From: an uncultured bacterium
GTDB taxonomy: Bacteria; Patescibacteriota; Saccharimonadia; UBA4664
NCBI GenBank assembly: GCA_963740635.1
Contig: CAVUEQ010000001.1
Span: forward strand, 81,026 to 145,025
DNA: 64,000 nucleotides
Reading direction: 5' to 3'
The position numbers and the translations under genes are program-made. Shown one piece after another: positions 864 to 24,681 of this stretch (position 1 is its first letter; every line of letters starts with the position of its first letter). Below the pieces are notes generated by a model, which saw only the letters and a list, made by a program, of their open reading frames with translations, was not told where the DNA came from and made no database searches.

Positions 864-954
864 TAGGGTGTAACCGTGTGAAGGTGTGCGCGTACCAGGT
901 CGCCTCGATGTAAATCGAAGATTCCGGGGACTAGCGGGTGGAAACAGCCGAAGC

Positions 955-10164: not shown

Positions 10165-10782
10165 GTGGTTCGGTTTAGCGAGATGAGCAGGGGGAGATTT
10201 GCCGGCTGGATGCTGGGGGGCTTGGTGTTCGTGGTGGGGTCTGTAACGCTGGCGCAGCAGGTCGGCGGGGTGGTGTCGCATATTGCGAACGGGGTTGTGA
10301 GCCACCAGAAAACGTATGCCAATACCGGCACGACGGCCGCAAACGGGCCGGACGCACCCACGGATGTGAGTAATGCCAAATTTGACTACCTGGTGCCGGG
10401 CAAGAGCGATGCGTGGAAAATGAATGACGGGCAGACGGCCTACGATCCCGATAAGGGAATCGTGAAATATGAAGTGACGTTTACGAATGCCAAGGTGGCG
10501 GCGACGGTGACTCAACAAGTATTTCCGGACCAGTTGAAGCCGCGGGGCGGGGACGCGTTCCGGGCTTTTGTGGCTAAATCCAATCCGAGCCGCAGCGCGG
10601 ACGTGAACGGCGGGACGGTGTACTTCCTGCAGTTTTTGCAAAACGGGGCGCCGTCATCGGACGGCACCAACACGGTGATTTTCGCCCGCGACGACGTGTT
10701 GATGTTTGGCCAGGCCCGCGGCATGCTAGGATACGATGCCTGGACCAAGATGATGGCGAGCTTGCAGAAGGCGGCGAAGTAA
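10165..10782 (+). CDS. Hypothetical secreted or membrane-anchored protein
   Basis: 205-aa ORF directly after giant gene 1. It has an N-terminal hydrophobic segment (WMLGGLVFVVGSVTLAQQ). No motif was recognised. Confidence 0.55.
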   Translation: MVRFSEMSRGRFAGWMLGGLVFVVGSVTLAQQVGGVVSHIANGVVSHQKTYANTGTTAANGPDAPTDVSNAKFDYLVPGKSDAWKMNDGQTAYDPDKGIVKYEVTFTNAKVAATVTQQVFPDQLKPRGGDAFRAFVAKSNPSRSADVNGGTVYFLQFLQNGAPSSDGTNTVIFARDDVLMFGQARGMLGYDAWTKMMASLQKAAK

Positions 10783-10785
10783 CCC

Positions 10786-11163
10786 TCAGGATAAGAGCTC
10801 GAGTTTTATGCCGGGTAGTCCCTGATACGTTTTATAGAGTGATTTATCGAGTGTAACAAAGTGACTTACACCGTGGCGGATAGCGGTAGCCAGTTGAAGG
10901 GCATCTTCGTAGTCCTTGGTGCGGGTGTTGATGAAAGCCCATTCGAAGTCGGCGGCGTCTAGTGGCAAGATGGAGTAGTCGGCTAGAAATTGGCGCAGTA
11001 TGGGCAGAACAGTAACGGACGTGCCGAAATGAACAACCAGGTGGGCTGTGAGGGCTGAGATATAAAGTACACCATTCGCGTACCGTTGCAAGATTTGCCT
11101 GGCGCTGGCTTGGCGGGTCCGGTCTAGCAGGATTTCGAGTAGGATGTTGGCGTCGAGGAAGAC
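10786..11163 (-). CDS. vapC: PIN-domain toxin (VapC-like); start codon unresolved
   Basis: PIN-like sequence EVFLDANILLEILLDRTRQ...DYEDALQLATAIRHGVSHFVTLD lies immediately downstream of an antitoxin gene. No ATG/GTG/TTG occurs in frame near the expected N-terminus (codons read AAT ACG GTC GCT AAT ACC GGC GAG GTC). The 5' coordinate is therefore approximate. Confidence 0.65.
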   Translation of the reverse strand, partial: VFLDANILLEILLDRTRQASARQILQRYANGVLYISALTAHLVVHFGTSVTVLPILRQFLADYSILPLDAADFEWAFINTRTKDYEDALQLATAIRHGVSHFVTLDKSLYKTYQGLPGIKLELLS

Positions 11164-11173
11164 CTCGCCGGTA

Positions 11174-11437
11174 TTAGCGACCGTATTTCTTGGCGATGGA
11201 GTCACGGTAGATTTCCTTGATGGGCGCGTTTGGATCGAAGGGCGACGGCTGTTTGGGTGCGGCATCAAAGGCGCGTAAGCCCGCGAGCGGCTGCCGGTTT
11301 TGGAGTTTGGGCTCGGCAGGACTGAGGCGGACCGGTTGCTTGAAACGGTGCTTGACGACGACTTCTTCGCCGGCCAGTACCCGGTCCAGCACTTGGTCGA
11401 GGTGTGCGCGTAGCTCTTTGGCGCCAATTGTCTTCAT
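11174..11437 (-). CDS. Phd/YefM-type antitoxin
   Basis: 87 aa. The N-terminus MKTIGAKELRAHLDQVLDRVLAGEEVVVKHRFKQPV is typical of Phd/YefM antitoxins. It sits directly upstream of the PIN gene. Confidence 0.75.
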   Translation of the reverse strand: MKTIGAKELRAHLDQVLDRVLAGEEVVVKHRFKQPVRLSPAEPKLQNRQPLAGLRAFDAAPKQPSPFDPNAPIKEIYRDSIAKKYGR

Positions 11438-11548: not shown

Positions 11549-14500
11549 GTGGACCTCAGGCGCAAGGCTGATAATTTACTGGCGTTAATACTCCAAACCG
11601 ACTGGCGCAAAATTGCCAGGCGGTGGTATTGGCGTGGGCGCCGGCCGGTATTAGGGATTTGGCGGCGGGTGCAGTCGGGCTGGAAGGGGCTGCGGCAACT
11701 GCGGTGGCGGGACCTGCGGCAGATGGGGCGGCGCGTGGGGAGGCAGCTGCGGCGGTTAGATATCCGAAAGCCGGTTCACGCGGTGGTGATAGGGGTGATA
11801 TTGGCGGGGATTATCGCGCCGGTGTCCGATTGGGTAGCCAACAATGAGCGCTACCGCCTGGACGGGCCGCGGGCGGACGTGGTGGAGAAGCCGTCGCCCA
11901 AGCTCAAGAGCAAACTGCTGTATGACAAAGCTAAGAAGGCCAGCGTGTTTAACGCTGATGGCGAGAAGGCGACGTCGGAAGACGCGAAAGACGCCCTGAC
12001 GTCGCGGGTGGGCGGGGGCGAGGAGAAGACGGCGCAGCTCTACAGCGCCACCCTGCCGGACCGGGCTACGGATGGCATAGACGTGCGCGACAATGTGAAC
12101 AAAGTGTCGGTGAAATTCCGGCCGCTGTTTGGCGTGATGGACGGCCAGGCTCGCAGCGGGCGGGTGATATATCCGCTGAAGGGGCAAGACGGGGCGATGG
12201 TTTATACGCCCAAGGCCAACGCGATCAAGGAAGATATTTTGCTGCAGTCGGCGCCGGGGAATAAGGCGGAGTATAGCTACCAGTTGGAACTGCCGGATTC
12301 ACTGGCGGCGCGGCTGGGGTCAGACGGCTCGCTGGGGTTCTACGCCGGCGACCCGAAATTGTTTGGCAACATTACGTTTGGCAGTGACAAAGACCGCGAT
12401 CTGGTGGAAGACGCCCGCAAGAAGGCCGACAAGAATACGCTGCTGTTTACGATCCCCGCGCCGACGATTACCCAGGGGGCAAAGCCGGCGGGCAATCCGC
12501 AGGCGAAGTTTAGCCTGGACGGCAAGAAGCTCACGGTGCACGTGACCGGGTTGGCCGGCGCGGCTTACCCGCTGTCGATCGACCCGACATTCTACATCGC
12601 TTCGACGGCGGATTTTTTGCTCGGGAGCTCGGATGACAACGTCGACATCTCTCAGGCCAACCAGGTGGGCCGGGCGGCGCTCACCGGCGGGTCGCTGCAG
12701 ACTTGGGCGAGCACAGCTTATAACTTGAGCTTCACAAAGATTCCCAGCGGGACGAGCACCACGAATTTTGCATTTGGTATCGCGGTGTACAACGGGTATA
12801 TGTATCAGCTCGGGGGCCACGACACTGGAACAACGGACGTGGCATATGCGCCAATAAGCCTTACCACCGGAGACCTCACGAGCGGGTTTACTGCGTTGAC
12901 ATCCTTTCAAACTGGTCGAGTGGGAATGCAAGCCTTTGGCTATAATGGCTACCTTTACATTGTGGGCGGCGAAAATGCGGCCGGGACGACGATTTATGCG
13001 ACTACGGAGTACGCGAAATTGACGGATACCGGCGCTATCTCGGCCGACAGCGGTTGCGGGACTCCTTGGTGCTATGGAACTAATCTGAACACAGCTCGGG
13101 CGTTTTTTGCAGCTGCTCAATATCAGGGAGTGCTGTATGTATTTGGCGGATCTACCAGCGACTCGCCGACGCTCAACGGCACGCTCACAAAAACTGGTGA
13201 ATATTCCCGTATCGGCGGTGACGGGTCTATCGGTAGCTGGACAACCAATACGAATGACTTGCCGAGTAACCGGGACCGATTTAGCGCGGCGGCCTATAAC
13301 GGGTATGTTTACATAACAGGGGGTTTGGACACTACCACGACCGTGACCAGCGCGGTTAGCTACGCTCCCATAAATAGCGACGGCACGTTGGGTGCGTGGG
13401 TGTCGACCACGGCCTTCCCGACCGCCCGGCGCGACCATGGGCTGGGTATGGAGCGGGGGCATATGTATATCTACGGCGGATGTCCCTTCGGCAACCCCTG
13501 CAACAGCGGCGATTCATTTAACGATACCAACTATGCGGTAGTGAACGCCGACGGGAGCATCGGGCAGTGGCAGCAGACCAACAATATGAACAACGCCCGC
13601 AGTATGATGGCGACCACTTTCTATAACGGATGGCTGTATTCGGCGGGTGGCTGCAGCCGAGAGAATGCCGGCGCCAACGACTGCAGATCGGAAAAAAGTA
13701 ACATATTCAAAACGACCTTTGACTTACCCGGTCGTTTCGATAACGGCATTCAGACTTTGATGACCACGCCGCCGTACAACAACAATGGGATAGGAACGGC
13801 GCGTTTCGGGGGGCAGTCGGTAGCGCTGAACGGTTACCTGTATCTGGTAAGCGGCTGTGCATCGACGGCTGCGAACTGTAACAACGCCTATACGTCGTCA
13901 GTGGAATACTCCACTATTAATGCCGACGGGTCACTGGGGACCTGGGCTTCTGCGGGTACAATGATTGCGAGCGCGGGTGGTACCAACAAGGCTGGTCGAG
14001 TAGGGCATGCAGTGGTGGCGTACAATACCAAAATTTATATTATAGGTGGTTTGGAATATACCAATGGAAATGCCGATTCGTGGAGAGGCGATACAGTGTC
14101 TGCGGTACAAGCCTCCAACGGTACGCTCGGTACTTGGACAAATGAGACTAATGTATTCCCGACGGCGAACGGATCGGCCGTTCGAGGTTTTGGAACGGCC
14201 GTTATTTGGCATAATAATATTTATTACTTGGGTGGCCGGGACTCCACGACGACGGTGTATACCGACATCTTCAGGGCGACGCTTACGGGCAACACGCTTG
14301 GCACATGGGCGACGGCTAAGCAGACCAATGGGTCGACCGCGCAGGTCTTGAACAACGCACGATGGGGTCACTCCGGTGGTATTTGGGGCAACTGGATATA
14401 CGTGGTAGGGGGGCAGAGCAACACTACCGGGACGTATCTGAGCTCAGCCAACAGTGTGGAGCGGCTAAATTTGAACAATGACGGAACTTTCGCAAGTGAT

Positions 14501-16327
14501 ACCACGCTTACTAACGGCACGGCAGGGCGAACTCGTTTTGCCGGCGGGTTCGTTCATAACGGCTACTTGTATACTTTTGGCGGCTACAATAACAGTACCA
14601 GTGCCACAACGAAAATGTACTGGACACGCCTGGATCCCACGACCGGCAATTTGGGGTCGGACGCGGCAACGCAGCAGTGGTCTTCAACCAACATCGGTAA
14701 CTTTGGTAGTCCGTATGGCTTGGCGCAAGCCAGAGGAGCGACAACGGCGACAGCTGTGGACGGGCATTTTTACATACTGGGTGGATGTTCTGCGACAATG
14801 GCTTCAACTGTTTTTAAAGCGTGTGGGACCTTGGTGACGACTACGAATTCGGTGGAGGTGTACCTTCCGAACAACGGCGGGACCGGGCAGACCGGGACGT
14901 GGTGTAGTACTTCTCCGACCTGTGCTCGAGTCTTGCCAAACGCCAAAGCGGATGCGGCGGCGGTGGCTTATAACGGTATTATCTATAGTATTGGCGGATG
15001 CACGGCGTATACGTCGGGTGTGTGTTCGACATGGTCGTCAGAAGTTAAGAGTAATCCGATAGCGTCGGATGGGACGCTCAGTGCAAGTTGGGCGACGGAG
15101 AATTCACTGACCACCGCGACTGGATTGCTGCAAGCTGTGGCCTATAACGGGTATATTTATGTGCTCGGTGGATGCATAAGTGCGAGTTGTAATACAACGA
15201 ATCCGGCGGCTGTCGCGACAGTGCTGTTCGCGACAGTTTCGAGTACCGGGGTGCTTGGTTCGTGGACGGCGGCCTCGCACAACATGGGGACGGCCCGTCG
15301 TGCTTTCGGGGCGGTGATTTCGAGCGGGTACATTTACGCGATCGGTGGGGAGGACGCGTCTGGTAGCAAGCTCTCGAGCACGGAATACGCATTGCTGGAT
15401 CCTACCACTGGAGATGTGGGCTCGTGGACTTCTGGCAACGCTTTTACGACGGCCCGGGCCCGGCATAGCGTGGCGGTGTACAACGGGGTGATTTATGTGG
15501 TCGGGGGGATAGATGGCAGCAGCAATACCTTATTGGACGTGCAGTATGCGGCCCTTAGCACGTCAGATGGGTCGATTGGGACTTGGGCGAATACGACAGA
15601 TATTCCGCGCGGCATGATATCCCGGCAAGTTGTGACGGCCAATGGGTATATGTATTTCCTGGGCAACGAGGGGACCACGACTGAGGTGTCCTACGCGGAC
15701 ATAAATGCTAATGGCACACTCGGGCTGCTATATGATCAGCCGAATGCTTTGGCTGGGGCACATGCCCATGGTGCGGCTGTGCAGTCTAATGGATTCATAT
15801 ATATATTAGGCGGATGCACGTTGAGCAGCGGAAACTGCAGTACAGTTTCGACCACCACCGAGTATGCCGGTCAGAAGGCGATTTCGCGGGCGGCGCATTA
15901 TTCGAAGCTGTGGGAGACGCAGGGCATCGATACGGCCCCGTCACAGATTGTGGTAAATGGGACTAGCTCGGGGGGAAGTAAGGTATCGACGATTTTGCGC
16001 ACATCGAGCAGTTTCGATCCCGTGCTCGGTATCCCACAGGTAATAAACCCAACTCAGTTCAATACATATTACCGCGTCTATCCGCTAAACTCGAGCGGTG
16101 TGAATGTGGGTGTGGCCAAGACTTATGCGATGGTGGTTATTATGGACGACACGCAGGCCGGGACATTTCCGGATGTGAACACGGGTGGCATTCAGACGAC
16201 GGTGACTAGCATTACCTTGTACTACCACGCCAACCCGAGCCGGCGATTGCGGCACGGGGCGTCGTTCTCGAATGTGGGCTGCAACATCGTGCCGGCGAAC
16301 GGGTGTATTTTGGACACGGCGCCTTAG
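11549..16327 (+). CDS. Giant N-terminally anchored Kelch-repeat surface protein (1,592 aa)
   Basis: GTG start with an AAGGAG RBS. An Arg/Trp-rich N-terminal tail is followed by a TM helix (VHAVVIGVILAGIIAPV). I counted 18 blades by the xGxxYxxGG signature (NGYMYQLGG, NGYLYIVGG, NGYVYITGG, NGYIYVLGG and others), with the recurrent DG(S/T)(L/I)GxW. A non-Kelch C-terminal domain of about 170 aa ends ...YYHANPSRRLRHGASFSNVGCNIVPANGCILDTAP. Confidence 0.9.
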   Translation: MDLRRKADNLLALILQTDWRKIARRWYWRGRRPVLGIWRRVQSGWKGLRQLRWRDLRQMGRRVGRQLRRLDIRKPVHAVVIGVILAGIIAPVSDWVANNERYRLDGPRADVVEKPSPKLKSKLLYDKAKKASVFNADGEKATSEDAKDALTSRVGGGEEKTAQLYSATLPDRATDGIDVRDNVNKVSVKFRPLFGVMDGQARSGRVIYPLKGQDGAMVYTPKANAIKEDILLQSAPGNKAEYSYQLELPDSLAARLGSDGSLGFYAGDPKLFGNITFGSDKDRDLVEDARKKADKNTLLFTIPAPTITQGAKPAGNPQAKFSLDGKKLTVHVTGLAGAAYPLSIDPTFYIASTADFLLGSSDDNVDISQANQVGRAALTGGSLQTWASTAYNLSFTKIPSGTSTTNFAFGIAVYNGYMYQLGGHDTGTTDVAYAPISLTTGDLTSGFTALTSFQTGRVGMQAFGYNGYLYIVGGENAAGTTIYATTEYAKLTDTGAISADSGCGTPWCYGTNLNTARAFFAAAQYQGVLYVFGGSTSDSPTLNGTLTKTGEYSRIGGDGSIGSWTTNTNDLPSNRDRFSAAAYNGYVYITGGLDTTTTVTSAVSYAPINSDGTLGAWVSTTAFPTARRDHGLGMERGHMYIYGGCPFGNPCNSGDSFNDTNYAVVNADGSIGQWQQTNNMNNARSMMATTFYNGWLYSAGGCSRENAGANDCRSEKSNIFKTTFDLPGRFDNGIQTLMTTPPYNNNGIGTARFGGQSVALNGYLYLVSGCASTAANCNNAYTSSVEYSTINADGSLGTWASAGTMIASAGGTNKAGRVGHAVVAYNTKIYIIGGLEYTNGNADSWRGDTVSAVQASNGTLGTWTNETNVFPTANGSAVRGFGTAVIWHNNIYYLGGRDSTTTVYTDIFRATLTGNTLGTWATAKQTNGSTAQVLNNARWGHSGGIWGNWIYVVGGQSNTTGTYLSSANSVERLNLNNDGTFASDTTLTNGTAGRTRFAGGFVHNGYLYTFGGYNNSTSATTKMYWTRLDPTTGNLGSDAATQQWSSTNIGNFGSPYGLAQARGATTATAVDGHFYILGGCSATMASTVFKACGTLVTTTNSVEVYLPNNGGTGQTGTWCSTSPTCARVLPNAKADAAAVAYNGIIYSIGGCTAYTSGVCSTWSSEVKSNPIASDGTLSASWATENSLTTATGLLQAVAYNGYIYVLGGCISASCNTTNPAAVATVLFATVSSTGVLGSWTAASHNMGTARRAFGAVISSGYIYAIGGEDASGSKLSSTEYALLDPTTGDVGSWTSGNAFTTARARHSVAVYNGVIYVVGGIDGSSNTLLDVQYAALSTSDGSIGTWANTTDIPRGMISRQVVTANGYMYFLGNEGTTTEVSYADINANGTLGLLYDQPNALAGAHAHGAAVQSNGFIYILGGCTLSSGNCSTVSTTTEYAGQKAISRAAHYSKLWETQGIDTAPSQIVVNGTSSGGSKVSTILRTSSSFDPVLGIPQVINPTQFNTYYRVYPLNSSGVNVGVAKTYAMVVIMDDTQAGTFPDVNTGGIQTTVTSITLYYHANPSRRLRHGASFSNVGCNIVPANGCILDTAP

Positions 16328-16379
16328 AGGGCCGAAGGTTAACCGGTTTGACTTCATTCTAGTTCATGGGGCATGATGG
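15811..16379 (+). repeat. Copy 1 of the 569-nt repeat (3' end of the Kelch gene plus 52 nt downstream)
   Basis: It aligns without indels to 18013-18581 at a constant offset of 2202 nt. The first 50 nt match at about 74%. Nt 15860-16210 match at about 87% (hand count). Nt 16211-16379 are identical. Confidence 0.95.
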
Positions 16380-18003
16380 TTTGGTGGACATAAGCGTAAA
16401 GGGAAATAAATTGCTTAGAAAGTTTTGTTCTGCAGTCAGTTCGATAATGATGATTCTGTGTACACTTGTACCCGCTGGACAGGTGTCTGCGGAATCGGGA
16501 GAGCGTATACTTTTTACTGGAGGAGATGACTCCCAAACACTCATAAGCATTAAACCTGATGGCTCAAACCGTCATGTGATCGGGGCTGGCACAGAGCTAA
16601 CCGTATCGCCGGATGGCAAGAAGTTTGCATTTCTGCGATACACCGCTGTGTCAGGTGGTCTTGAGCTATTTGTAATGAACTCAGACGAGACGGGAGTTAG
16701 GAACATATCGCAAGCAGACGAGGGTCAATTTGTTGGTCCTGATTATTCGTGGTCGCCGGATAGCACGAAGATTGTTTACGAAAAAGCTGTTGATGACAAC
16801 GGAGTTGCTTTATTTGTCGTCAACATCGATGGGACTGATGACACACTTCTGAGGCCACATGTGCCAATAGTGTCAGCATACTTACCCAAGTGGTCGCCAG
16901 ATGGGCAGAAGATACTATTTACAGGTACGGACGATGACTTTGAGTTCCAAGGGGTGTATGTAATGGATGCCGATGGTCGGAATGCCGAATTGTTGGTCAA
17001 TGATGCCCTTAACGCTTCGTGGTCGCCCGATGGAGCGAATATTGCGTTTGAGGCGGATTTCTACTCAACACAGGGGAAGGAAATAGCCGTTATGAATGCA
17101 GACGGCAGTAGCCCTGTCAGGCTAACTTATGATAATGGGGCAGACATTGACCCCGTGTGGTCACCCGATGGCACGCGCATTTTGTGGTTGGCAGGTGGCC
17201 AGGCATATACGATAAGTGTTGATGGGTCGGATCGAAGACATATCAACCAAATCCAAGGATCGAGCTTGCAAACCGGCGCACGTTGGTCGCCGGACGGAAC
17301 AAGGGTAGTATTCGGCTTACTTTTGCCGCCGACTGCCGGACCTCCAAACGTATATCGCTTGTTTACTGCCTCGGCGATGGGTGGAGATGAGCTGGAAGTG
17401 AGTGCCGAAGGGGCCAATGTCCCTATGTGGGCGTACGTCGATGACACGCCAGGAGTAACAGATCCTAGGTCCTGTACGATTACTGGTACTGCTGGTGACG
17501 ATATCCTGCATGGGACACCAGGCAACGATGTAATATGTGGGCTCGGAGGTGATGACAAGATTTACGGCAACGGGGGAGTAGATACATTGTACGGTGATGC
17601 TGGAGAAGATACTCTAGATGGCGGTCCGGGAAACGACAGACTTTATGGCGGTGACGGGAATGACAAACTGGACGGTGGCGGGGGTAATGATACGCTATAT
17701 GGTGAAGCAGGAAACGATACAGTTGATGGCAGTGCGGACGATGATATCGTCTCGGGCGGAGTGGGCGACGATACAGTGCGGGGAGGGACTGGCGTTGACT
17801 CGGTCTACGGAGATGACGGGAACGATGTGATAGAGGGCAATGGTAGCGATGACATTCTATTCGGTGGAGATGGCATAGACCAATTATCTGGTGGAACTGG
17901 CAACGACCAGCTTGATGGTGGCGCTGGTACGCCGGATAGTTGTGACGGTAACGGTGGCACAGACACCGCCGTAAATTGTGAAATCTCAACCAATATTCCC
18001 TAG
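16366..18003 (+). CDS. Secreted TolB-like PD40 beta-propeller protein with C-terminal RTX-type Ca-binding repeats
   Basis: Six PD40-like repeats are visible ([68 protein letters not shown]). Nonapeptide repeats follow ([53 protein letters not shown]). The signal peptide is [28 protein letters not shown]. The likely true start is TTG 16411, after AAAGGG. The gene is visibly more A+T-rich than its flanks. Confidence 0.8.
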
Positions 18004-18012
18004 CTGTTGTAG

Positions 18013-18529
18013 CGGATGTAGGCTCAACAGCGTAAACTGCAATACGGATCTGAGCACCACCGAGTATGCTGGGCAGAAAGCGATTTCGCGGGCGGCGCAT
18101 TATTCCAAGCTGTGGGAGACACAGGGCATCGATACGGCGCCGTCGCAGATTGTGCTAAACGGGACTAGTTCGGGGGGGAGTAAGGTATCGACGATCTTGC
18201 GAACGTCATATAGTCTTGACCCGGTGCTGGGTATTGCGCAGGTAATAAACCCAACTCAGTTTAACACCTACTATCGCGTCTACCCGCTGAACTCCAGCGG
18301 TGTGAACGTGGGTGTGGCCAAGACGTATGCGCTGGTGATAATTATGGATGACACGCAAGCCGGGACATTTCCGGATGTGAACACAGGTGGCATTCAGACG
18401 ACGGTGAGTAGTATTACCTTGTACTACCACGCCAACCCGAGCCGGCGATTGCGGCACGGGGCGTCGTTCTCGAATGTGGGCTGCAACATCGTGCCGGCGA
18501 ACGGGTGTATTTTGGACACGGCGCCTTAG
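18013..18529 (+). pseudogene. Orphan C-terminal domain of a Kelch-gene paralogue (no N-terminal part, no credible own start)
   Basis: It encodes ...TTEYAGQKAISRAAHYSKLWETQGIDTAPSQIVLNGT...DTAP, which differs from the Kelch C-terminus at only 7 residues. The listed ORF 17978..18529 opens just after an in-frame TAA and has no signal or anchor sequence. Confidence 0.7.
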
Positions 18530-18581
18530 AGGGCCGAAGGTTAACCGGTTTGACTTCATTCTAGTTCATGGGGCATGATGG
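18013..18581 (+). repeat. Copy 2 of the 569-nt repeat
   Basis: See copy 1. It starts 10 nt after the stop codon of the PD40/RTX gene. Confidence 0.95.
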
Positions 18582-19191
18582 AAGTCATTTAGCGGAGTCA
18601 GTTGGCGTGTACAATGTCGGCCTACGCGCCAAGGATGTGGCTGGGAACTGGAGTCCGGTGACGTCAACAATGCTGGTAATATACGACCCGACCACGACCC
18701 TAAGGATAACGGGTAAAAATAAGAAGGATTTGGTGCCAAGCTTGGCCGGCGGGGACATACTTCCAGGGCTTGTCTCTGGCTCTCAGTCAGACGCGGCGGA
18801 TTTTGGCTTTACGGTGCAATATAAGAATGGGGTGATTGATTCAAAGAACGACTTCATTTTCAACTATCTCACCGGGACCAACTGTGGCAAGCCAAATGCT
18901 CAGAACTGTCACAGCCTAACGCTTAATGCTACCAGCTTCGCTTGGCTAGTATTGGACCAAACAAATAACTCTAGAGGAAGTTTTCAGGGGACGGCTACGG
19001 TGACTGTAGATGGAGTAACCACTTCAAACCCATTTACAGTTGAAGGTATTGACGGCGACAGGTTAAGCCCGTCCACAAATGATCACCTGTTGGTACGAGT
19101 CTTTGCTCCTGGAGCGGATCCATCGACCGCGACTCCGATTTACCAGGCGTCTGGATACATAGCTAAGGGGAATAGCATAAAGGTCCAGTAG
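18568..19191 (+). pseudogene. 5'-truncated fragment of a foreign surface-protein gene (Ig-like end plus C-terminal beta-sandwich domain)
   Basis: It has no signal peptide. Its first five codons (MGHDG) belong to the repeat spacer. It then enters mid-domain (VGVYNVGLRAKDVAGNWSPVTSTMLVIYDP), followed by a beta-sandwich (AADFGFTVQYKNG...SFAWLV...GTATVTVDG...GNSIKVQ). It is A+T-richer than the flanks. Confidence 0.55.
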
Positions 19192-19302
19192 GCTTGCTAC
19201 CATGCCAACCCGTCGCGGCGGCTGCGGCATGGGAAGTCTTTTAGCAACATTGGGTGCAACCTGAATCCGGCCGGGGGGTGCATTGAGGACACGGCGCCTT
19301 AG
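19192..19302 (+). repeat. Copy 3 (remnant) of the Kelch-gene tail: last 36 codons plus TAG
   Basis: ACYHANPSRRLRHGKSFSNIGCNLNPAGGCIEDTAP* compared with LYYHANPSRRLRHGASFSNVGCNIVPANGCILDTAP* gives 28/36 identical residues at the same length. It is in frame with ORF 18568..19191 across a single TAG. Confidence 0.85.
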
Positions 19303-19319
19303 CGTGTTTAGGTACTGGA

Positions 19320-19976
19320 CTAGTGGATTTGGAGGCTGGCGGGGGAGGAGCTGCCGAGGACATTCTGGTTGGTGACGCTGGAGACGAGGGCGGTGCCGGC
19401 GGTGAAGGCGAGGGTAGCGGCGCCGGAGGCCTTGGCTTTGAGGGTGAGCGTGGCGATTAGTTGGTCGCCCTTTTTGGGGGTGGTGGTGCCGCGGCTGACC
19501 TTTATGACACCGTTCTTGCCGCTGGTTTCGGCGGCAATTTCGAAGCCGCTGCCGGTGCCTGAGGCGGAGACGTAGTCGAATTTGTCGGATGGGTAGGTGA
19601 GGTTGGCCTGGACCGCGTTGACGTACTGGTTTTGGCTGTTTTCGCGAATGGCGACGGTGAATGACGATCCTGCGGCGAGGCTCGCGGTGGCCGGAGTGAG
19701 GTAGAGCTGCCCGTTGCCGGTGGCGGCGCCGGACTGGACGGTTGGTGTGGGTGTGACGGGCTTGGTGTTAATGTTGTTGCCGGCACGCAGACCGATGAGG
19801 GTTAGGCCGCCGATGACTGCCAGGCCGATGGCGGCCAGCACCGCAACTATCTTTATGACGGGGCCGGTGAGGGAGGCCGCCGGCTGCTGAGGCGGCTGCT
19901 GCGGGGGTTGGGGCTGTTCCGGGGGTTGCGGGGCCTGGGGCTGCTGGGGTGATTCTGGTGATTGCGCGGGTGGCAT
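19320..19976 (-). CDS. N-terminally anchored cohesin-like domain protein with Pro/Gln-rich cytoplasmic tail
   Basis: MPPAQSPESPQQPQAPQPPEQPQPPQQPPQQP is followed by a TM helix (IKIVAVLAAIGLAVIGGLTLIGL) and a beta-sandwich of about 130 aa. The beta-sandwich has a cohesin-like pattern (FTVAIRENS..VNAVQANLTYPSDKFDYVS..GDQLIATLTLKAKASG). Confidence 0.7.
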   Translation of the reverse strand: MPPAQSPESPQQPQAPQPPEQPQPPQQPPQQPAASLTGPVIKIVAVLAAIGLAVIGGLTLIGLRAGNNINTKPVTPTPTVQSGAATGNGQLYLTPATASLAAGSSFTVAIRENSQNQYVNAVQANLTYPSDKFDYVSASGTGSGFEIAAETSGKNGVIKVSRGTTTPKKGDQLIATLTLKAKASGAATLAFTAGTALVSSVTNQNVLGSSSPASLQIH

Positions 19977-19991
19977 GATTCGGGGCTCCTG

Positions 19992-20546
19992 CTAATGGAT
20001 GTAGTATGAAACAACTGCGGTGGTGGTGCCGGGAAGGTTGGCGTTGGTAACGCTTGATACAATGCCTGAATCGGGGAGGAAACTCAAGGCCGCGCTGCCA
20101 CCGGTGGGGAGGACGGTGAAGTTGATTGTGGCTACAGGCTGGTCGCCGGTGAGGGGCGTGGTGGTGCCGCGCACGAGCTTGGTGGTGCCGGGGCCGTTAG
20201 TGGATTGGGCGGCCACGCCAAAGGCGCTGGTGGTGGTGTCGATGGATGCCAGTTCGAGCTTGTCGGCGGGGTAGGCCAGGTCGGCCACGATGGCGTTGAC
20301 TGGGGTATTGAGGCTGTTTTCCCGGATTTCGAATGTGAGGGTGGAGCCTGGTGCGAACGTGCCTTCGGCCGGCGAGATGTAGATCGCGGGATTGGTGGTG
20401 ACGGCGGGGTGCCTGGCCGCTTGGCTGGTGGCTACGACTGCCCCTATGGCAACCGCGCCCACCACGACGGCGGCCAGGCTCATGACCTGGATTTGAACGC
20501 GGGGGTCGAGGGGGCTGAAGTTGGAAGGTGAGTTAGTGCGGGGCAT
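19992..20546 (-). CDS. N-terminally anchored cohesin-like domain protein (paralogue of 19320..19976)
   Basis: It has a TM helix (VMSLAAVVVGAVAIGAVVATS). The matching domain reads LTFEIRENSLNTPVNAIVADLAYPADKLELAS..GDQPVATINFTVLPTGG. Confidence 0.7.
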   Translation of the reverse strand: MPRTNSPSNFSPLDPRVQIQVMSLAAVVVGAVAIGAVVATSQAARHPAVTTNPAIYISPAEGTFAPGSTLTFEIRENSLNTPVNAIVADLAYPADKLELASIDTTTSAFGVAAQSTNGPGTTKLVRGTTTPLTGDQPVATINFTVLPTGGSAALSFLPDSGIVSSVTNANLPGTTTAVVSYYIH

Positions 20547-20567
20547 TATTTTGGCTCTCCTAAGGGG

Positions 20568-21527
20568 TTATTGCGTTACGAAGTAATCATAGCTGAGTAC
20601 GGCACCACTGCCGGGGGGAGCGGCATCGGTTTTGACCTGGAAGCCGCCGCCGTTGCGCGTGACGTAGGCTGGGGTAGAAGCGGCCGAGCCGGTGAGGGGC
20701 GAGAGCAGCACGTGCACGGTGGCGCCGTAGCCGGCGCGGAAGGTGATGGTGCCGAGCACGCCGGCGGGCGGGGAATTGCCGGTGTTGAAATTGAGGGTGC
20801 CGGCGGTGTCGTTGCCGCTGATTGAGGCCGTGCCGCCGCCGCCGACGGCCGTGCCCGTCACAAACGCCGGCGTGGGGCCTTGGGTAGCCAGATGGCTGAT
20901 GGTGAGCGGCCCGGAGATCCTGATGGTGCGCACGGCGATGGAGCTGGCGTTGAGCGAATTGAAGCCGGCGGCGCCGCCGACGTTGAGGCCGCCCGAGAGG
21001 GTGGCGAGCCCGCCGACGGTCAGGCTTTGCTGCAGGGTGGTGTTGCCGGTGACGGCCAGGTTGCTGCCCACGCTTAATCCCGTGGCAGCGGTGCTGCCGG
21101 TGATGTTGAGCTGGCTGAGGGTGACCGGGCCGTTGGCGTTGAGGTGGCCGCCGATCGAGAGGTCGCCGCCCACGTCGACCTTGCCGCGGAAGAGCGAATT
21201 GGCGCCGATGTTGAGGGTTTGGCCGGAGCTGCCGAGGTCGGAACCGATTTGGCCGAGCTTGGCAATGTCTTCGGGGCTGAGGGTGGTGATATTGGTTTTG
21301 GGCGCGGCCGGGGCCTGCTCGTGGGCTTTGCCCCAGTAGTAGCCCACGACACTCCCGACGGCAACCAGGAACACGAACAGCCCGGCAATGCGCCCGACCG
21401 CGTTGGCGCGGCCTACGAGCGCATCCCAACTGCGATTGGCCGCTCGTTTTTTGGGAGCGGCGGGGGGTTGGCCGGGTGTGGGTGGCGTTGGCGGTTGGCC
21501 AAGTGTGGGGGGTGTGCCCGGTGGCAT
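20568..21527 (-). CDS. N-terminally anchored surface protein with beta-helix-like short repeats and Pro-rich tail
   Basis: MPPGTPPTLGQPPTPPTPGQPP is followed by a TM helix (IAGLFVFLVAVGSVVGYYW). Repeats follow: VDVGGDLSIGGHLNANGPVTLSQLNITGSTAATGLSVGSNLAVTGNTTLQQSLTVGGLATLSGGLNVGG. It is the first gene of a three-gene minus-strand operon. Confidence 0.7.
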   Translation of the reverse strand: MPPGTPPTLGQPPTPPTPGQPPAAPKKRAANRSWDALVGRANAVGRIAGLFVFLVAVGSVVGYYWGKAHEQAPAAPKTNITTLSPEDIAKLGQIGSDLGSSGQTLNIGANSLFRGKVDVGGDLSIGGHLNANGPVTLSQLNITGSTAATGLSVGSNLAVTGNTTLQQSLTVGGLATLSGGLNVGGAAGFNSLNASSIAVRTIRISGPLTISHLATQGPTPAFVTGTAVGGGGTASISGNDTAGTLNFNTGNSPPAGVLGTITFRAGYGATVHVLLSPLTGSAASTPAYVTRNGGGFQVKTDAAPPGSGAVLSYDYFVTQ

Positions 21528-21624
21528 TATTACTCACAAGAATTACTGCCCAATATTATAACGCTTGTGCTCCATATATTCTAATTGTGCTTGCTGACAC
21601 TCCCTCACTTTTGACACCCGCCCG

Positions 21625-21710
21625 GTGATAAACCAGCTATACCATCACTTCACCTGCACACGGCGTGCTCGGAGGGAGCAGGAGTTGATAGTTTCATGTC
21701 ATAGTAGGGT
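21625..21710 (+). repeat. Intergenic repeat element R1 (about 86 nt)
   Basis: It shares the blocks GTGATAAA, AGCTATACCAT, ACACGnCG, CTCnGAG and GTTTCATGnCATAnTAGG, in the same order and orientation, with R2 at 21922-22008. Confidence 0.7.
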
Positions 21711-22008: not shown

Positions 22009-22111
22009 CGCGATAGTCCGTGCCGTTGGAGATGCCTGAAAGTGAGGGTGGGTCAGCTCGAAGCTCAAGCAGATTGCGAAATTGCCCGGAATCCGGCAAG
22101 ATACTTCATAT

Positions 22112-22933
22112 ATGAGACGGTGGAGTCGGAAGTTTATAGTGGGCGTGGCCGTGGCGCTGGGCCTGGCGGGTGTGGCGCAGGCGAGCCTGGGCGACCCTTC
22201 GGCTTCGTCCAATAACTACATGGTGATCGAGAGCGAATTGGGGGGCAACGGCTGCCCGAACGGCAGTCCGTACCAGTGCGGCAGCTCGGCTTCGTATTCA
22301 TTTAATCCCTCGACCGACGACGGCGGCTCGAGCCTGGGCGAATCGGCCGTGGGCAGCGGCAGTTCCGCGAATTATTCCAGCGGGGCGGGGTTCAACACCA
22401 CCGCGCAGCCGGGACTAACGATGACTGTGAGCTCAACTCCGGCGGACCTAGGAGTGTTGTCTACTGGGTCGGCAAATACCGCTTCGGCTACATTTAGTGT
22501 AAAGGACTACACCTCCTGGGGTTACGCAGTGACAGTTATCGGCTCACCCCCTGCGTATAATGGGCATCCGTTGGCCGCGATGGGCACCCAATCGTCCAAT
22601 AGTACCGGTTGCTCTCCGACGTGCGCTTCGAATAATGGCGTCGAGCAATTTGGCATGAATCTGCGATTGAATGCATCCCCGAACGCGGTAGGTGCGGATC
22701 CCGTCCCAATTCCGAGTTCCTCATTTAGCTTGTCCGACCCTAACGTAATAATACCTACTCCATATCGAACGCCTGATGCCTACCGCTTTTTCTCCGGAGA
22801 TACTATTGCGTCAGCACCAAGCAGTTCGGGTGAAACGGACTACACCATCAGCTTTATGGCAAATATGAGTACTACGACGCCCGGCGGCAAGTACACCGGC
22901 GGCATTACGCTGGTGGCCACAGGGACCTACTAG
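22112..22933 (+). CDS. Secreted beta-sandwich surface protein, short member of a 4-gene paralogue family (possibly WxL-like)
   Basis: ATG 22112 gives the signal peptide MRRWSRKFIVGVAVALGLAGVAQA. It shares the C-terminal domain of the family (..AMGTQSSNSTGCSPTCAS..EQFGMNLRLNASPNAVGADP..YRFFSGDTIAS..GGKYTGGITLVATGTY*). Confidence 0.75.
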   Translation: MRRWSRKFIVGVAVALGLAGVAQASLGDPSASSNNYMVIESELGGNGCPNGSPYQCGSSASYSFNPSTDDGGSSLGESAVGSGSSANYSSGAGFNTTAQPGLTMTVSSTPADLGVLSTGSANTASATFSVKDYTSWGYAVTVIGSPPAYNGHPLAAMGTQSSNSTGCSPTCASNNGVEQFGMNLRLNASPNAVGADPVPIPSSSFSLSDPNVIIPTPYRTPDAYRFFSGDTIASAPSSSGETDYTISFMANMSTTTPGGKYTGGITLVATGTY

Positions 22934-22956
22934 CTTAAATTTTCCTGAAATCCGAG

Positions 22957-22986
22957 TTGACCTTCTTATAAAGCTTATGCTATGGT
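22957..22986 (+). promoter_or_regulatory. Candidate promoter (TTGACC-18-TATGGT) for 23031..24176
   Basis: -35 at 22957-22962 and -10 at 22981-22986, about 45 nt upstream of the ATG and preceded by an A+T-rich tract. Confidence 0.4.
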
Positions 22987-23030
22987 ACCGTTAAATAGTA
23001 TCTTTGAGGTAAAAGCAAAGGAAATGAAAA

Positions 23031-24176
23031 ATGAGTAGAAGGGATATCCTTCGAACCCATTACACAGGGTTATTGAGAAGGGCCGGCGCCTGGGCAGGTC
23101 TTGGTGCGTTGATGGCGAGCATGTTTGTCCCAACGGGAGCAAGTGCGGTCGGGCAACTGACGGAGCGTTCGCTCACTCTTGGGTCATCGAAGATTAGTAC
23201 ATCGACAACTTACCTATATGGCTTTAAGCCGGCGACCACGACAGCTGTCGGGTCAGTGAAGTTTCAGCTGTGTACGTCTCCGCTGGAGAACGTTTCTTGT
23301 ACCGGCCCGTCCGGTGCCGACTCATCAGTGCCAGGCGCCCTCACTCTGGGTGGTCAGATCTCAGGGTTTTCGAAGAGTAATGGTACAAACAACCCGTCTC
23401 CGACTGCGAACGTGATTTGGATAGAGAATGGTACCCCGCAAAGCTTAACAAGCGGTACAGCTTCGACTGTTCAGTTTGCGACGATTACAAACCCCTCGAC
23501 TGTCAACCAGACGTTTTACGCGCGCATTACGACCTATGCTGAAACCGCCGGTAGCACTGAGGTAGACTATGGTGCGGTAGCGGTATCGACGGCTGCCCAG
23601 ATTACTGCGAGTGCAAACGTTCAAGAGCAATTAGCGTTTTGTGTATACACCGGGGCTAATTGTGGCGCCGGTGGTTCGACTGTGAACGTCGGTACGACAT
23701 CGGATAACATTTTAAACACCAGCACCCCTACGGGCGGGACATCCAAAATGGATGCGTCGACCAACGCATCCTCAGGGTACGTCATAACGTACATAACGAC
23801 CACCATTGCTGGACACCCGAGCGCATCGTTTACATCACTTAACGACACGATTACAGATGCCGGTAGCTCAAACGTACCTGATCCCGGAGATGGTGTAGCA
23901 ATTTTCGGAATAAACCTCAAAGCTAACAGCACCTTGGGAGGCGGCTCCCTAGGAGCGAACTCGTCAGGTGGTTCAGGTGTGGCAGTTGGGTCGTATGCTG
24001 TAGCGGATCAAATCGCTTTTGTAGCCGGATCTACGCCGCAAACGGTAGCTAACAGTGCCGGTGGGCCCTCTGACACAACCACCTTCACAGTCAGTTACGT
24101 GGCTCAAGCCGGTACGACATCCAAGGCCGGCCAATACAGTGCACTGTTCACCTACGTCTGCACCGGTACATTCTAA
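23031..24176 (+). CDS. Secreted two-domain beta-sandwich surface protein, paralogue family member (possibly WxL-like); RR-containing signal peptide
   Basis: MSRRDILRTHYTGLLRRAGAWAGLGALMASMFVPTGASA is followed by the conserved mature N-terminus GQLTERSLTLGSS. The C-terminus is AGQYSALFTYVCTGTF*. It is A+T-richer than the two downstream paralogues. Confidence 0.8.
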   Translation: MSRRDILRTHYTGLLRRAGAWAGLGALMASMFVPTGASAVGQLTERSLTLGSSKISTSTTYLYGFKPATTTAVGSVKFQLCTSPLENVSCTGPSGADSSVPGALTLGGQISGFSKSNGTNNPSPTANVIWIENGTPQSLTSGTASTVQFATITNPSTVNQTFYARITTYAETAGSTEVDYGAVAVSTAAQITASANVQEQLAFCVYTGANCGAGGSTVNVGTTSDNILNTSTPTGGTSKMDASTNASSGYVITYITTTIAGHPSASFTSLNDTITDAGSSNVPDPGDGVAIFGINLKANSTLGGGSLGANSSGGSGVAVGSYAVADQIAFVAGSTPQTVANSAGGPSDTTTFTVSYVAQAGTTSKAGQYSALFTYVCTGTF

Positions 24177-24193
24177 AATAGCCTAATCGACAA

Positions 24194-24220
24194 TCCGCCA
24201 CCTCTCGGTGGTGGATTTTT
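24194..24220 (+). terminator. Intrinsic terminator
   Basis: TCCGCCACC-tctc-GGTGGTGGA (9-bp stem with one mismatch) is followed by TTTTT. It lies 18 nt after the stop of 23031..24176. Confidence 0.75.
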
Positions 24221-24245
24221 GGTTGAGGCCGAGCTGAGGGCAGGA

Positions 24246-24274
24246 TTGAGTGTTCGCTTTGTGTTCGGTATAAT
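24246..24274 (+). promoter_or_regulatory. Promoter module copy A (TTGAGT-gttcgctttgtgttcgg-TATAAT)
   Basis: One of four copies of a 29-nt promoter whose 17-nt spacer is also conserved. The other copies are at 39646, 40186 and 40894. Confidence 0.6.
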
Positions 24275-24317
24275 GAATGAGAGGTGGGGTTTATACTGGA
24301 AACAGAAGGGGAATGGT

Positions 24318-24629: not shown

Positions 24630-24681
24630 CAAGTAGTTTGCACTTATGATCAAGATAGGGTAGGCTTGTAGCGTAAGAACA

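Follow-up and report, generated by a model that had tools for sequence, protein, structure and literature searches.

A Kelch gene tail present three times in a soil Saccharibacteria genome: possible recombination scars in a hypervariable spot

Why should the 3' end of a single surface protein gene be present three times at one locus, with A+T-richer genes between the copies? The locus lies in a Saccharibacteria (TM7) genome from soil, in a stretch of 64,000 nt that was analysed as a whole (the window). An intact Kelch-repeat surface protein gene, identified by the ORF list, its translation and Pfam Kelch families, is located at 11549–16327 (plus strand). Its 1,592-aa product combines Kelch blades with a predicted membrane anchor at the N-terminus and with a C-terminal tail of 171 aa that ends ...YYHANPSRRLRHGASFSNVGCNIVPANGCILDTAP. 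Comparison of the window with itself demonstrated that 15810–16379 recurs at 18012–18581 at a constant offset of 2202 and with 0 indels. A third copy, recognized by tblastn and alignments, consists of a Kelch tail's final 36 codons with their TAG (T3, 19192–19302, 111 nt, plus strand) and is identical to copy 1 at 77 of 111 nt and 28 of 36 aa. When the tail was searched against the window by tblastn, copy 2 (E = 3e-105) and copy 3 (E = 5e-15) were recovered, and there was no further match below E = 0.2. With K for the Kelch gene, T for the tail copies and R for an exactly repeated block, the overall order is K-T1-R / cargo 1 / T2-R / cargo 2 / T3. A preliminary description of this DNA had reported the same three copies, offset and absence of indels as well as the 28/36 match of copy 3, all of which were reproduced.

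Copies 1 and 2 each consist of two parts. All 56 differences between them lie in the 5' part (T1, 15810–16210, plus strand, in the live gene; T2, 18012–18412, plus strand, in the orphan copy, as established by copy comparison and translation), where the 401 nt are 86% identical. The copy comparison revealed 0 differences in the remaining 169 nt (R, 16211–16379, plus strand), which are 100% identical to 18413–18581 (R', plus strand). Identity leaps from 86% to 100% at 16210/16211, which is a mosaic boundary. Given the flanking divergence, 169 nt would be free of differences with a probability of about 1e-11 to 2e-10, and the identical block points to sequence exchange between copies 1 and 2. 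R takes in the final 117 nt of the Kelch gene with its TAG and a spacer of 38 nt, and reaches 14 nt into the next ORF. An imperfect palindrome is present inside R at 16334–16355, as is a promoter-like TTGACT-18-CATGAT at 16348–16377, followed by 2 nt to the end of R.

By codon position the 56 differences are distributed 8/9/39, and they change 14 amino acids over the whole 171-aa tail, half of them (7/14) in the first 14 codons. The earlier hand count of 44 differences in 351 nt (15860–16210), with 7 amino-acid changes there, was exact. In the diverged 399 nt, dN is 0.057 and dS is 0.58, a ratio of about 0.10, which bears out the earlier claim in that copy 2 diverged mostly under purifying selection. 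Lineage-specific changes number 24 in each copy (11 synonymous and 13 nonsynonymous in copy 2; 18 and 6 in copy 1). On the basis of dS, dN and these balanced counts, copies 1 and 2 appear to be diverged alleles rather than an in-situ duplicate.

Diversity-generating retroelements are common in CPR bacteria, and the 3' end of a surface-protein gene is repeated nearby here, as it would be if copy 2 were the template repeat and copy 1 the variable repeat at the 3' end of a target gene. The substitutions refute this reading, to which we give practically no credence: their spectrum is symmetric and not adenine-specific (C>T 11, T>C 10, G>A 9, A>G 6; 36 transitions, 20 transversions), and 39 of the 56 fall at third codon positions. 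The repeat is also 570 nt long with an identical 3' part, and no reverse transcriptase domain was present among the ORFs scanned round the locus.

An error of assembly is a further explanation to consider, as the genome is metagenome-derived and short k-mers branch at an exact repeat of 169 nt, where strain variants or collapsed paralogues might be wrongly joined. Logan contigs of run ERR11718635, assembled apart from the deposited record, argue against it. Contig L014 corresponds to 16350–18442 of the window (placed by its gene coordinates) and contig L012 to 18552–21663 (verified by blastn). Together they confirm four of the six junctions (16379/16380, 18011/18012, 18581/18582 and 19191/19192) and stop short of 15809/15810 and 16210/16211. 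The contigs break nowhere but inside the exact repeat, and the edges that fall there each reach 30 nt (k-1) into the identical block. Tail 2 is physically joined on its left to the first intervening gene, and is therefore not merely another strain's allele of tail 1. We conclude, at the level of assembly, that the repeat is physically real, and a false join is highly improbable.

The unit that recurs encodes the C-terminal domain of a Kelch surface protein of ~1,500 aa, which is conserved. Orthologues at Saccharibacteria loci L001–L010 share 37–66% identity, and a profile search returned 698 relatives, mostly of 1,400–1,900 aa and with the tail at the C-terminal end. The tail is the best-conserved section of the gene. 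Comparison with related genomes, which the preliminary description had proposed as a check, found exactly one tail in each of about 30 related sequences (the 25 fetched loci included); the three-tail arrangement was absent from all of these, and no tandem triple was seen among them. A single tail is the ancestral state, and the triplication is thus a one-off. Decay of tandem paralogues, one of the origins suggested earlier, fits poorly with the single tails in about 30 sequences, the low dN/dS and the jump to 100% identity.

What lies between the tails? Cargo 1 (16380–18011, plus strand) is a complete gene for a secreted protein with a PD40 beta-propeller and RTX calcium-binding repeats (Pfam PD40 and HemolysinCabind). 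Its ORF spans 16366–18003 and is followed by 8 nt up to copy 2. The true start is likely the TTG at 16411, behind AAGGGA, from which a signal peptide is predicted, and the promoter-like element inside the repeat probably drives expression of the gene. Its nearest relatives are at most 38% identical, and the C-terminal end resembles their native ends. Cargo 2 (18582–19191, plus strand) corresponds to the 3' two-thirds of a gene from a beta-rich family that has no name. Designated ORF207 (ORF 18568–19191), it has lost at least the first 120 codons and the signal peptide but retains its native TAG stop. Its homologues (P0013–P0031) are 55–67% identical, measure 310–340 aa when full-length, and share the C-terminus ...GN(S/A)V(K/R)(I/V)(R/Q), ending at the same place. 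Cargo GC (50.7% and 49.8%) is below the 56.8% of the Kelch gene and the 59.1% of the window, and cargo GC3 (46% and 53%) is below the 64–83% of resident genes and the 69–76% of the tails. The cargo is compositionally foreign and the tails are native. These results agree with the earlier account of A+T-richer cargo (GC and GC3), comprising a complete PD40/RTX gene and a second, 5'-truncated fragment (Pfam and the lengths of the homologues).

Because both cargo genes have native stops, they are independent genes and not fusion partners. The preliminary description had seen an inverted logic here, with the variable part 5' of a common tail. This does not hold: PD40/RTX stands alone, with its own predicted signal peptide and native stop and in a different frame from tail 2, and ORF207 ends at its family's native stop, so that tail 3 is not its C-terminus. 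The geometry of such separate genes is the ordinary one, a conserved homology block with variable DNA downstream. Swapping of ectodomains onto a shared tail, also suggested earlier, gained no support.

Both cargo segments begin at one identical point, 2 nt past the -10-like box, and the gap from stop to next tail is 8 nt for PD40/RTX and 0 nt for ORF207. At 18011/18012 and 19191/19192 there is at most 3–4 nt of 'TAG/GTAG' similarity. T2 is open in the tail frame, +1 relative to PD40/RTX, and its translation and flanking sequence lack a Kelch body, signal peptide, anchor and recognisable start context. T3 is altered at two otherwise invariant positions (A->K and L->E). The orphan tails are most likely non-functional relics.

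The position of the third tail can be understood from related loci. T3 lies 17 nt from a convergent cohesin gene, the first of two resident cohesin-domain genes (19320–19976 and 19992–20546, minus strand; Pfam Cohesin) that are convergent with the tails and have a GC3 of 78–80%. Beyond them is orf20568c (20568–21527, minus strand), the conserved downstream neighbour and normal right border of the locus. Its homologues are found in 17 related loci, 3' of the Kelch tail and on the opposite strand, mostly within about 20–800 nt, and the usual order in relatives is Kelch tail, orf20568c homologue (opposite strand) and orf22082. In L019 one cohesin gene lies between the tail and the conserved downstream gene, and the intact tail is placed as T3 is. 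T3 resembles the L010 tail (87/111) more than it does copy 1 (77/111), and its GC3 (76%) is in line with its resident neighbours. From the L019 layout and GC3 we conclude that copy 3, probably the oldest orphan, is a resident remnant in ancestral position by the cohesin gene. Neither this ancestral position nor the mosaic boundary at 16210/16211 had been remarked in the preliminary description.

Among relatives the space after the tail is empty or holds a Y1_Tnp gene (L009–L011), a phosphatase/redoxin protein of ~780 aa (L004–6, L010, L017 and L025), small genes (L015) or the one cohesin gene of L019. On the basis of this varying content among genomes, the region just 3' of the Kelch gene is a hypervariable spot. 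We lean, with modest confidence, toward reading the array as recombination scars in this spot behind a conserved Saccharibacteria Kelch gene, with no dedicated cassette system; it looks like a scar of known type and not a new genetic system. The tail would have served as the homologous anchor by which DNA from related strains, carrying a Kelch 3' end and a different downstream gene, recombined into the locus, probably after entry by natural transformation. The far end of each incoming piece would have been joined illegitimately inside the resident tail, which would displace the 3' remnant of the older tail downstream. The array itself shows a conserved anchor, then non-homologous DNA, then displaced 3'-end remnants, with T3 in ancestral position, and divergence from copy 1 climbs with position from 14% (5' part of copy 2) to 31% (copy 3), which fits newest-first stacking. 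Tail 3 would be oldest, tail 2 with the truncated cargo 2 would have come next and tail 1 with PD40/RTX last, and a later homologous exchange (crossover or gene conversion) would have erased the differences between copies 1 and 2 in their last 169 nt. As neither a donor nor a recipient haplotype was found in the sequence collections searched, we infer both the order and the number of these events.

Several observations sit uneasily with serial recombination. The common start point of both cargos is unexpected from independent illegitimate joins, and the model needs one junction to derive from the other via exchange within R, or a hot spot there. The gaps of 0 and 8 nt at the cargo ends are tighter than random joins predict. 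In classical homology-facilitated illegitimate recombination, recipient DNA 3' of the anchor is usually deleted; here the join is upstream of where the anchor ends, and a duplication results in place of the classical deletion. Known from one genome only, the array cannot show recurrence.

Two other sequences of events reach a similar product. One is the Campbell-type insertion put forward earlier, a possible form of insertion driven by homology. In it, tail 2, R and PD40/RTX would make up a circle of 2,202 nt that underwent one crossover in R with the chromosomal tail and yielded K-T1-R-PD40-T2-R-ORF207, and excision or amplification of the unit may still occur. Such a crossover accounts for the exact order and for the identity of both R copies, and the unit is a cycle in the Logan assembly because contig L014 starts and ends 30 nt inside R; circle, tandem array and integrated unit are alike by sequence. 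Against this, the unit is chromosomal in the deposited contig of 829 kb, no integrase and no function for replication or excision was found in or near it in the ORFs scanned (Pfam detected no integrase domain in ORFs from 886 to 26798), and tail 3 and the truncation of ORF207 are left unexplained. The circle must also have carried PD40/RTX already joined to a truncated tail, so 18011/18012 needs an earlier illegitimate event. We regard this insertion as unlikely.

The other begins with tandem duplication of the tail and PD40/RTX, continues with deletion of the second PD40/RTX and the 5' part of ORF207, and ends when a diverged allele replaces the Kelch gene as far as 16210, tail 2 being the previous allele's fossil. 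It overlaps heavily with the serial recombination that we favour, the main difference being the first step. Only common events are called for, and they explain why R, with the opening 14 nt of the next ORF, is identical and why the cargos share a left breakpoint, as well as the low dN/dS (as orthologous divergence) and the 16210/16211 boundary. But the left end of the deletion must hit the R/cargo boundary exactly, the extra nonsynonymous changes of copy 2 (13 versus 6) suggest an orphan period yet R' has 0 changes, and tail 3 is again unexplained. Its probability, too, seems low.

Arrays of this kind have precedents for the serial recombination that we favour. Natural competence has been shown in cultured Saccharibacteria, which take DNA into their genomes by homologous recombination (PMC10633639), and homology-facilitated illegitimate recombination was put forward for like displaced arrays at Vibrio T6SS and Rhs loci (PMC5361080). 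Vibrio cholerae T6SS effector-immunity modules undergo sequential displacement by this route (Kirchberger et al., 2017, PMC5361080): foreign genes are added behind a conserved upstream gene in a naturally competent bacterium, and the proposed anchor-plus-illegitimate-join mechanism leaves 3'-end remnants within the array. The immunity genes retained in Vibrio arrays offer a clear selective reason (PMC5361080), whereas here a tail fragment and a truncated gene are kept with no evident use and no T6SS context. Displacement of Rhs C-termini into orphan CT arrays (Jackson et al., 2009; Koskiniemi et al., 2014), as far as it is summarized in PMC5361080, likewise involves a conserved block of the main gene as anchor, the newest module on the live gene and older modules displaced downstream, each with a conserved-block fragment and with divergence growing along the array. 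Here the variable DNA consists of separate genes past the stop codon, unlike Rhs, so the protein product is unchanged. An Rhs/CdiA main gene would have an Rhs/YD-repeat or FHA/CdiA core, with a PxxxxDPxGL or VENN demarcation motif ahead of the variable C-terminal toxin; in the main gene here Pfam reported only Kelch and beta-propeller families and neither RHS nor filamentous haemagglutinin families, and there is no Rhs/YD core. The tail fragments end at their own stop and do not form the core fragment, in-frame toxin and immunity gene of an Rhs/CdiA orphan; no toxin or immunity signature was found in PD40/RTX or the ORF207 fragment. The array also does not recur across its lineage as Rhs/CdiA arrays do, with a single tail in about 30 related sequences, and it is known from one genome, that of a CPR bacterium. 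The earlier likeness to orphan-module arrays was apt as to mechanism, and the statement that no described system has this arrangement was too strong, as Rhs C-terminal and T6SS effector-immunity displacement leave like scars (PMC5361080).

Other systems offer partial parallels. An incoming fragment that pairs at two places can generate a duplication flanked by direct repeats, which here would duplicate the tail round new DNA; for Streptococcus pneumoniae, Johnston and colleagues reportedly described, in 2013, merodiploids and tandem duplications that arise by transformation. Such duplications are large and unstable and have IS or rRNA repeats on either side, while the unit here is 2.2 kb and includes foreign DNA. 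The pilE/pilS loci of Neisseria also have partial, promoterless copies of a surface-protein gene close to the expressed gene, and the identical 169-nt block makes gene conversion between the tail copies plausible. The pilS copies hold variable sequence that diversifies the expressed protein, whereas the tail copies encode almost one conserved domain; copies 1 and 2 specify nearly the same protein (14/171 aa differ), so there is no sign of diversification. G4-forming and Sma/Cla-type elements like those of Neisseria pilS are absent here, and the arrangement occurs in one genome. Like an integron, the locus has new cargo beside a promoter-bearing site, older cargo shifted down and a shared cargo start nucleotide; unlike an integron, it has no integrase and neither attI nor attC sites, no imperfect inverted repeats bound the cargo, and the gene in cargo 2 is truncated.

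The tightness of the cargo ends also raises the question of a functional variation system, in which orphan tails act as silent cassettes or acceptor modules that fuse cargo to tail, or switch the Kelch tail. Fusion could proceed by recombination, by a +1 shift at the CCC-TAG that ends PD40/RTX or by read-through of the TAG that ends ORF207. The cargo stops are followed after 8 and 0 nt by a tail fragment, reading in +1 from CCC-TAG stays open into tail 2, which runs for 171 codons with no stop or frameshift, and ORF207 is in frame with tail 3. Yet some recoding can be read into any frame relation, and TAG is the commonest stop in the window. The arrangement is found in 0 of about 30 other related sequences, ORF207 lacks a start and signal peptide, tail 3 has lost two invariant residues, and no recombinase or invertase was found near the locus in the ORFs scanned. 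Switching would alter little, as the three tails encode nearly the same protein. We consider such a system very unlikely indeed.

We give only slightly more weight, and still little, to the idea that the Kelch end and the 38-nt spacer, with its hairpin and promoter-like box, form a cargo-capture site in soil Saccharibacteria. Genes for secreted proteins may enter at a fixed nucleotide, 2 nt past the -10 box and flush with their stops. The mechanism might be site-specific or single-stranded, perhaps related to the Y1 transposase-like genes of the nearest relatives, with a 2.2-kb circular intermediate and recoding that fuses cargo to tail as possible further elements. An IS200/IS605-type or REP/RAYT-associated insertion would have a Y1 HUH transposase and subterminal hairpins at both of its ends; tblastn found no Y1_Tnp gene in the window, and the sole palindrome is inside R with none at the right ends of the cargo. 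The -35 element of R is shared with the spacer 5' of the Y1_Tnp gene in L010 and L011.

The C-terminal end of the Kelch gene (11549-16327, + strand, 1,592 aa), a 171-aa tail, is present three times, the third time only in part. Self-comparison of the window placed the repeat where the preliminary description had put it: positions 15810-16379 recur as 18012-18581 at a constant offset of 2202 nt, with zero indels. Copies 1 and 2 differ at 56 positions, every one within the first 401 nt (tail 1, 15810-16210; tail 2, 18012-18412), and a recount reproduced exactly the earlier hand count of 44 differences and seven amino-acid changes within 351 nt. The following 169 nt, block R (16211-16379 and 18413-18581), show no differences and comprise the last 117 nt of the Kelch gene including its TAG, a 38-nt spacer and the first 14 nt of the following ORF. 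The third copy is also where it had been reported (tail 3, 19192-19302) and matches copy 1 at 77/111 nt and 28/36 residues. As a tblastn query the tail found these three places only (copy 2, E = 3e-105; copy 3, E = 5e-15; next match, E = 0.2), and no further tail copies or RLRHG-type motif proteins were found in the 64-kb window. Tail 2 is annotated in the deposited genome as an ORF of 101 aa; P0003, one of the proteins related to the tail, is tail 2 itself.

Four junctions of this array are physically real. Two Logan contigs of run ERR11718635 were retrieved by exact protein match: L012, which is window 18552-21663 at 100% identity (blastn), and L014, of 2,093 nt, which carries the PD40/RTX gene from base 17 and matches window 16350-18442 by coordinates. 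Together they confirm the joins 16379/16380, 18011/18012, 18581/18582 and 19191/19192, with coverage that begins at 16350, downstream of the stretch joining the Kelch gene and tail 1. The contig ends inside the repeat each lie exactly 30 nt into the identical block, as in a k = 31 graph at a true repeat.

The DNA between the tails is foreign in composition. GC3 is 46% in cargo 1 (16380-18011) and 53% in cargo 2 (18582-19191), against 69-76% in the three tails and 64-83% in resident genes, which strengthens the earlier claim of A+T-richer cargo. Cargo 1 is a complete gene, in which Pfam identifies PD40 propeller repeats and seven stretches of RTX nonapeptides; its C-terminus is similar to the native termini of other proteins of this architecture. 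Its annotated ATG (16366) falls inside R; a TTG at 16411 has AAGGGA just upstream, would yield a normal signal peptide and is probably the true start. The best relatives of this gene are at most 38% identical; the homologue search was dominated by RTX repeats, with no close relative among the matches. Cargo 2 holds ORF207 (18568-19191), whose homologues are 55-67% identical and all share the end ...GN(S/A)V(K/R)(I/V)(R/Q) at the same stop. Since the full-length homologues are 310-340 aa long and share this one end, cargo 2 is a fragment that lacks at least 120 N-terminal codons and keeps its native stop (19189-19191). Tail 3 lies in frame directly after that stop; it was rejected as the native C-terminus of ORF207 because the homologues end at the same stop. 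The preliminary description had also proposed recombination that swaps ectodomains onto a common tail. This finds no support, as each cargo ends at a native stop, the frame of cargo 1 differs from that of the tail and cargo 2 has no start.

Among the best full-length cargo 2 homologues (contig L013, 10001-11002; protein P0018), one is from Dactylosporangium (Actinobacteria), and another has neighbours of actinobacterial type (MarR, TetR, MDMPI_N) on its 900-kb contig. The known hosts of cultured Saccharibacteria are Actinobacteria. The GC3 of cargo 2 (53%) is unlike that of a high-GC actinobacterium, and no Kelch tail was found near the ORF207 relatives on the actinobacterial contig L013 or on contigs L031 and L032.

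The 1,592-aa Kelch protein has Kelch-type blades (Pfam) and, in its translation, a hydrophobic stretch near the N-terminus (...VHAVVIGVILAGIIAPV...), a sign that the protein may be anchored in the membrane at its N-terminus and carry the tail at the far end. Neither the 171-aa tail nor ORF207 or tail 3 matched a Pfam or NCBIfam family. A profile search of the tail against solved structures yielded no relative, just a chance match at E = 0.13; its AlphaFold model is poor (pLDDT 56), with a beta-sandwich core at residues 40-115 only, and in the PDB Foldseek matched this model only to generic jelly-roll or CBM-like folds, none below E = 0.03. A word-indexed protein search with the tail returned 11 relatives, all Kelch proteins or fragments ending ...YYHANP.RRLRHGASF...GC(I/L)LDTAP. 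An exhaustive profile search returned 698 relatives, mostly of 1,400-1,900 aa and matching at the extreme C-terminus. The tail thus belongs to a single widespread family, as its conserved C-terminal domain, and is not a module common to different proteins. A literature search on Saccharibacteria and Kelch found nothing relevant.

Related loci were collected by a degenerate-pattern scan based on the tail alignment, which found nine loci among GTDB species representatives (7/9 labelled Saccharibacteria, Saccharimonadia, Saccharimonadales or Patescibacteria) and 16 further loci in JGI metagenomes. Kelch orthologues with 37-66% identity hold the same position in related genomes, flanked upstream by a giant ORF and a small gene and downstream by a conserved opposite-strand gene. 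Every other related sequence examined (about 30, including the 25 fetched loci) has a single tail, which points firmly to a single tail as the ancestral state. Downstream of the tail, 17 related loci have an opposite-strand homologue of the window's gene 20568-21527, mostly after a gap of ~20-800 nt. This space is nearly empty in loci L001, L007 and L026. Elsewhere it holds a Y1_Tnp gene (IS200-like, possibly RAYT-like) directly after the Kelch stop (L009 10528-11133, L010 2454-3020 and L011 921-1262, carriers that include the window's two closest relatives), a ~780-aa phosphatase/redoxin protein (L004, L005, L006, L010, L017, L025), small coiled-coil genes (L015) or one convergent cohesin gene (L019). 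The post-Kelch region is thus a hot spot whose content differs for almost every pair of related genomes, and this variability places the window's 4.2 kb from Kelch stop to downstream gene within this hot spot. No homologues of the relatives' Y1_Tnp or phosphatase/redoxin cargo were found in the window. Only 17 nt separate tail 3 from a convergent cohesin gene, an arrangement like that of the intact tail in L019, and we read tail 3 as a probable in-place remnant of the resident gene end.

Over the 399 diverged coding nt, copies 1 and 2 show dN of 0.057 and dS of 0.58, and 39/56 differences fall at third codon positions. Polarised against L011, L010 and L015 as outgroups, the lineage-specific changes number 24 in either copy: 18 synonymous and six nonsynonymous in copy 1, and 11 and 13 in copy 2, whose surplus replacements cluster in its first 14 codons. 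These patterns indicate past selection on copy 2, most of whose evolution took place within a functional gene, as had been proposed from the hand count, with a hint of later relaxation. A diversity-generating retroelement was ruled out because the spectrum of changes is symmetric and third-position dominated. The first 14 codons, at the left edge of the repeat (15812-15853 against 18014-18055), hold 7/14 of the amino-acid differences between tails 1 and 2, among them a T->R change in an otherwise constant GCT motif; possible causes of the cluster are a variable linker, a loss of constraint at the broken end and error-prone repair at the junction.

At the flanking divergence, the probability of zero differences over 169 nt is ~1e-11 to 2e-10. 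This improbable jump marks the mosaic boundary 16210/16211 as an end point of recombination or gene conversion. No available sequence is closer to copy 1 or copy 2 than the other copy (86%); L011 (74%) and L010 (70-72%) come next. Local tandem duplication, followed by deletion and allelic replacement, is a close variant of the stepwise recombination that we favor and is compatible with the same data. Tail 3 is more diverged, with 87/111 nt matching L010 against 77/111 for copy 1, and is substituted at two family-invariant positions.

The 38-nt spacer in R contains an imperfect palindrome (16334-16355; hairpin GAAGGTTAACCGGTTTGACTTC) and a promoter-like TTGACT-18-CATGAT. In L010 and L011, the spacer that precedes the Y1_Tnp gene aligns with the -35 element of this promoter-like sequence. 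R stops 2 nt past the -10-like box, and both cargos start at that identical nucleotide; at the right, the gap to the next tail is 8 nt after cargo 1 (tail 2) and 0 nt after cargo 2 (tail 3). The shared left breakpoint and tight right ends are not well explained by independent random joins, and we count them as unexplained. They leave a small chance for a site-specific capture mechanism, which we consider very unlikely. Around the cargo no mobile-element ends were found, the tails being the only terminal repeats, direct or inverted, and Rfam found no RNA families in the window. An integron or IS200/IS605 element was rejected, as the scanned window region holds no integrase, attC-like repeats or Y1 transposase.

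The PD40/RTX gene ends in CCC-TAG (within 17998-18014), with the +1 frame open from 17975 through tail 2, and the ORF207 TAG is in frame with tail 3 (within 19186-19197). No evidence of recoding at either site was found in the sequence examined. TAG is the commonest stop here (9/17 large ORFs checked), and any frame relation whatever lends itself to a reading as recoding of one form or another.

The most economical account would be stepwise recombination through known processes. DNA uptake and integration by homologous recombination are documented in Saccharibacteria (PMC10633639), and a homologous anchor plus an illegitimate join is the model put forward for the displaced arrays of Rhs loci and of Vibrio T6SS clusters (PMC5361080). 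Here, DNA of related strains, with a Kelch 3' end ahead of a different downstream gene, would have recombined in through an anchor in the Kelch gene, while its other end joined illegitimately inside the resident tail and pushed the 3' remnant downstream. We infer two such steps, with tail 3 the oldest piece, followed by tail 2 with the truncated cargo 2 and then by the present tail 1 and R with the PD40/RTX gene. Homologous exchange in R, either the crossover of the last event or later gene conversion, would have made the 3' blocks identical. The Logan contigs are compatible alike with an integrated unit and with a 2.2-kb circle, and Campbell-type insertion of such a circle through R is another close variant of this stepwise account. 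An Rhs or CdiA array was rejected, as the locus has no such core and no toxin/immunity pair; unlike in those arrays, the variable DNA here follows the stop codon. The observations of the preliminary description stand, and its interpretation is partly right.

The locus belongs, in general terms, to a known kind of recombination scar array. New is its setting, in an uncultured Saccharibacteria lineage, at a Kelch surface-protein gene and with stand-alone cargo genes. Saccharibacteria are ultrasmall epibionts with reduced genomes, and to our knowledge their gain of surface and secreted proteins is poorly documented. The array would be a natural record of stepwise gene gain beside a conserved surface-protein gene, with scars that suffice to read the order of events, and of diverged alleles recombining in an uncultured soil lineage. 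The finding remains anecdotal, as the triple-tail array occurs in one genome only, its orphan pieces show no function and the mechanism is drawn by analogy with Rhs and T6SS loci.

The Kelch gene belongs to a surface locus that is conserved in Saccharibacteria (window 886-9870 and 22082-26798) and has the same order in L003, L008 and L009: a giant 2,994-aa ORF, a small gene, the Kelch gene, an opposite-strand 319-aa gene and an array of 270-390-aa signal-peptide paralogues. The giant ORF and the scanned paralogues had no Pfam match; the paralogues, where their ends are readable in related loci, end in ...ATGTY/F. Two ORFs of 1,690 and 1,731 aa (29948-35020 and 34443-39638, + strand) overlap by ~580 nt in different frames; they may be one giant gene, frameshifted or recoded, or else two genes with a start set wrongly. 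The small conserved gene (10165-10782) is separated from the Kelch gene by a PIN-domain gene (10786-11427, - strand). Since L004, L007, L008 and L009 have only ~60 nt and no PIN match at this position, it is a second window-specific insertion, on the other Kelch flank.
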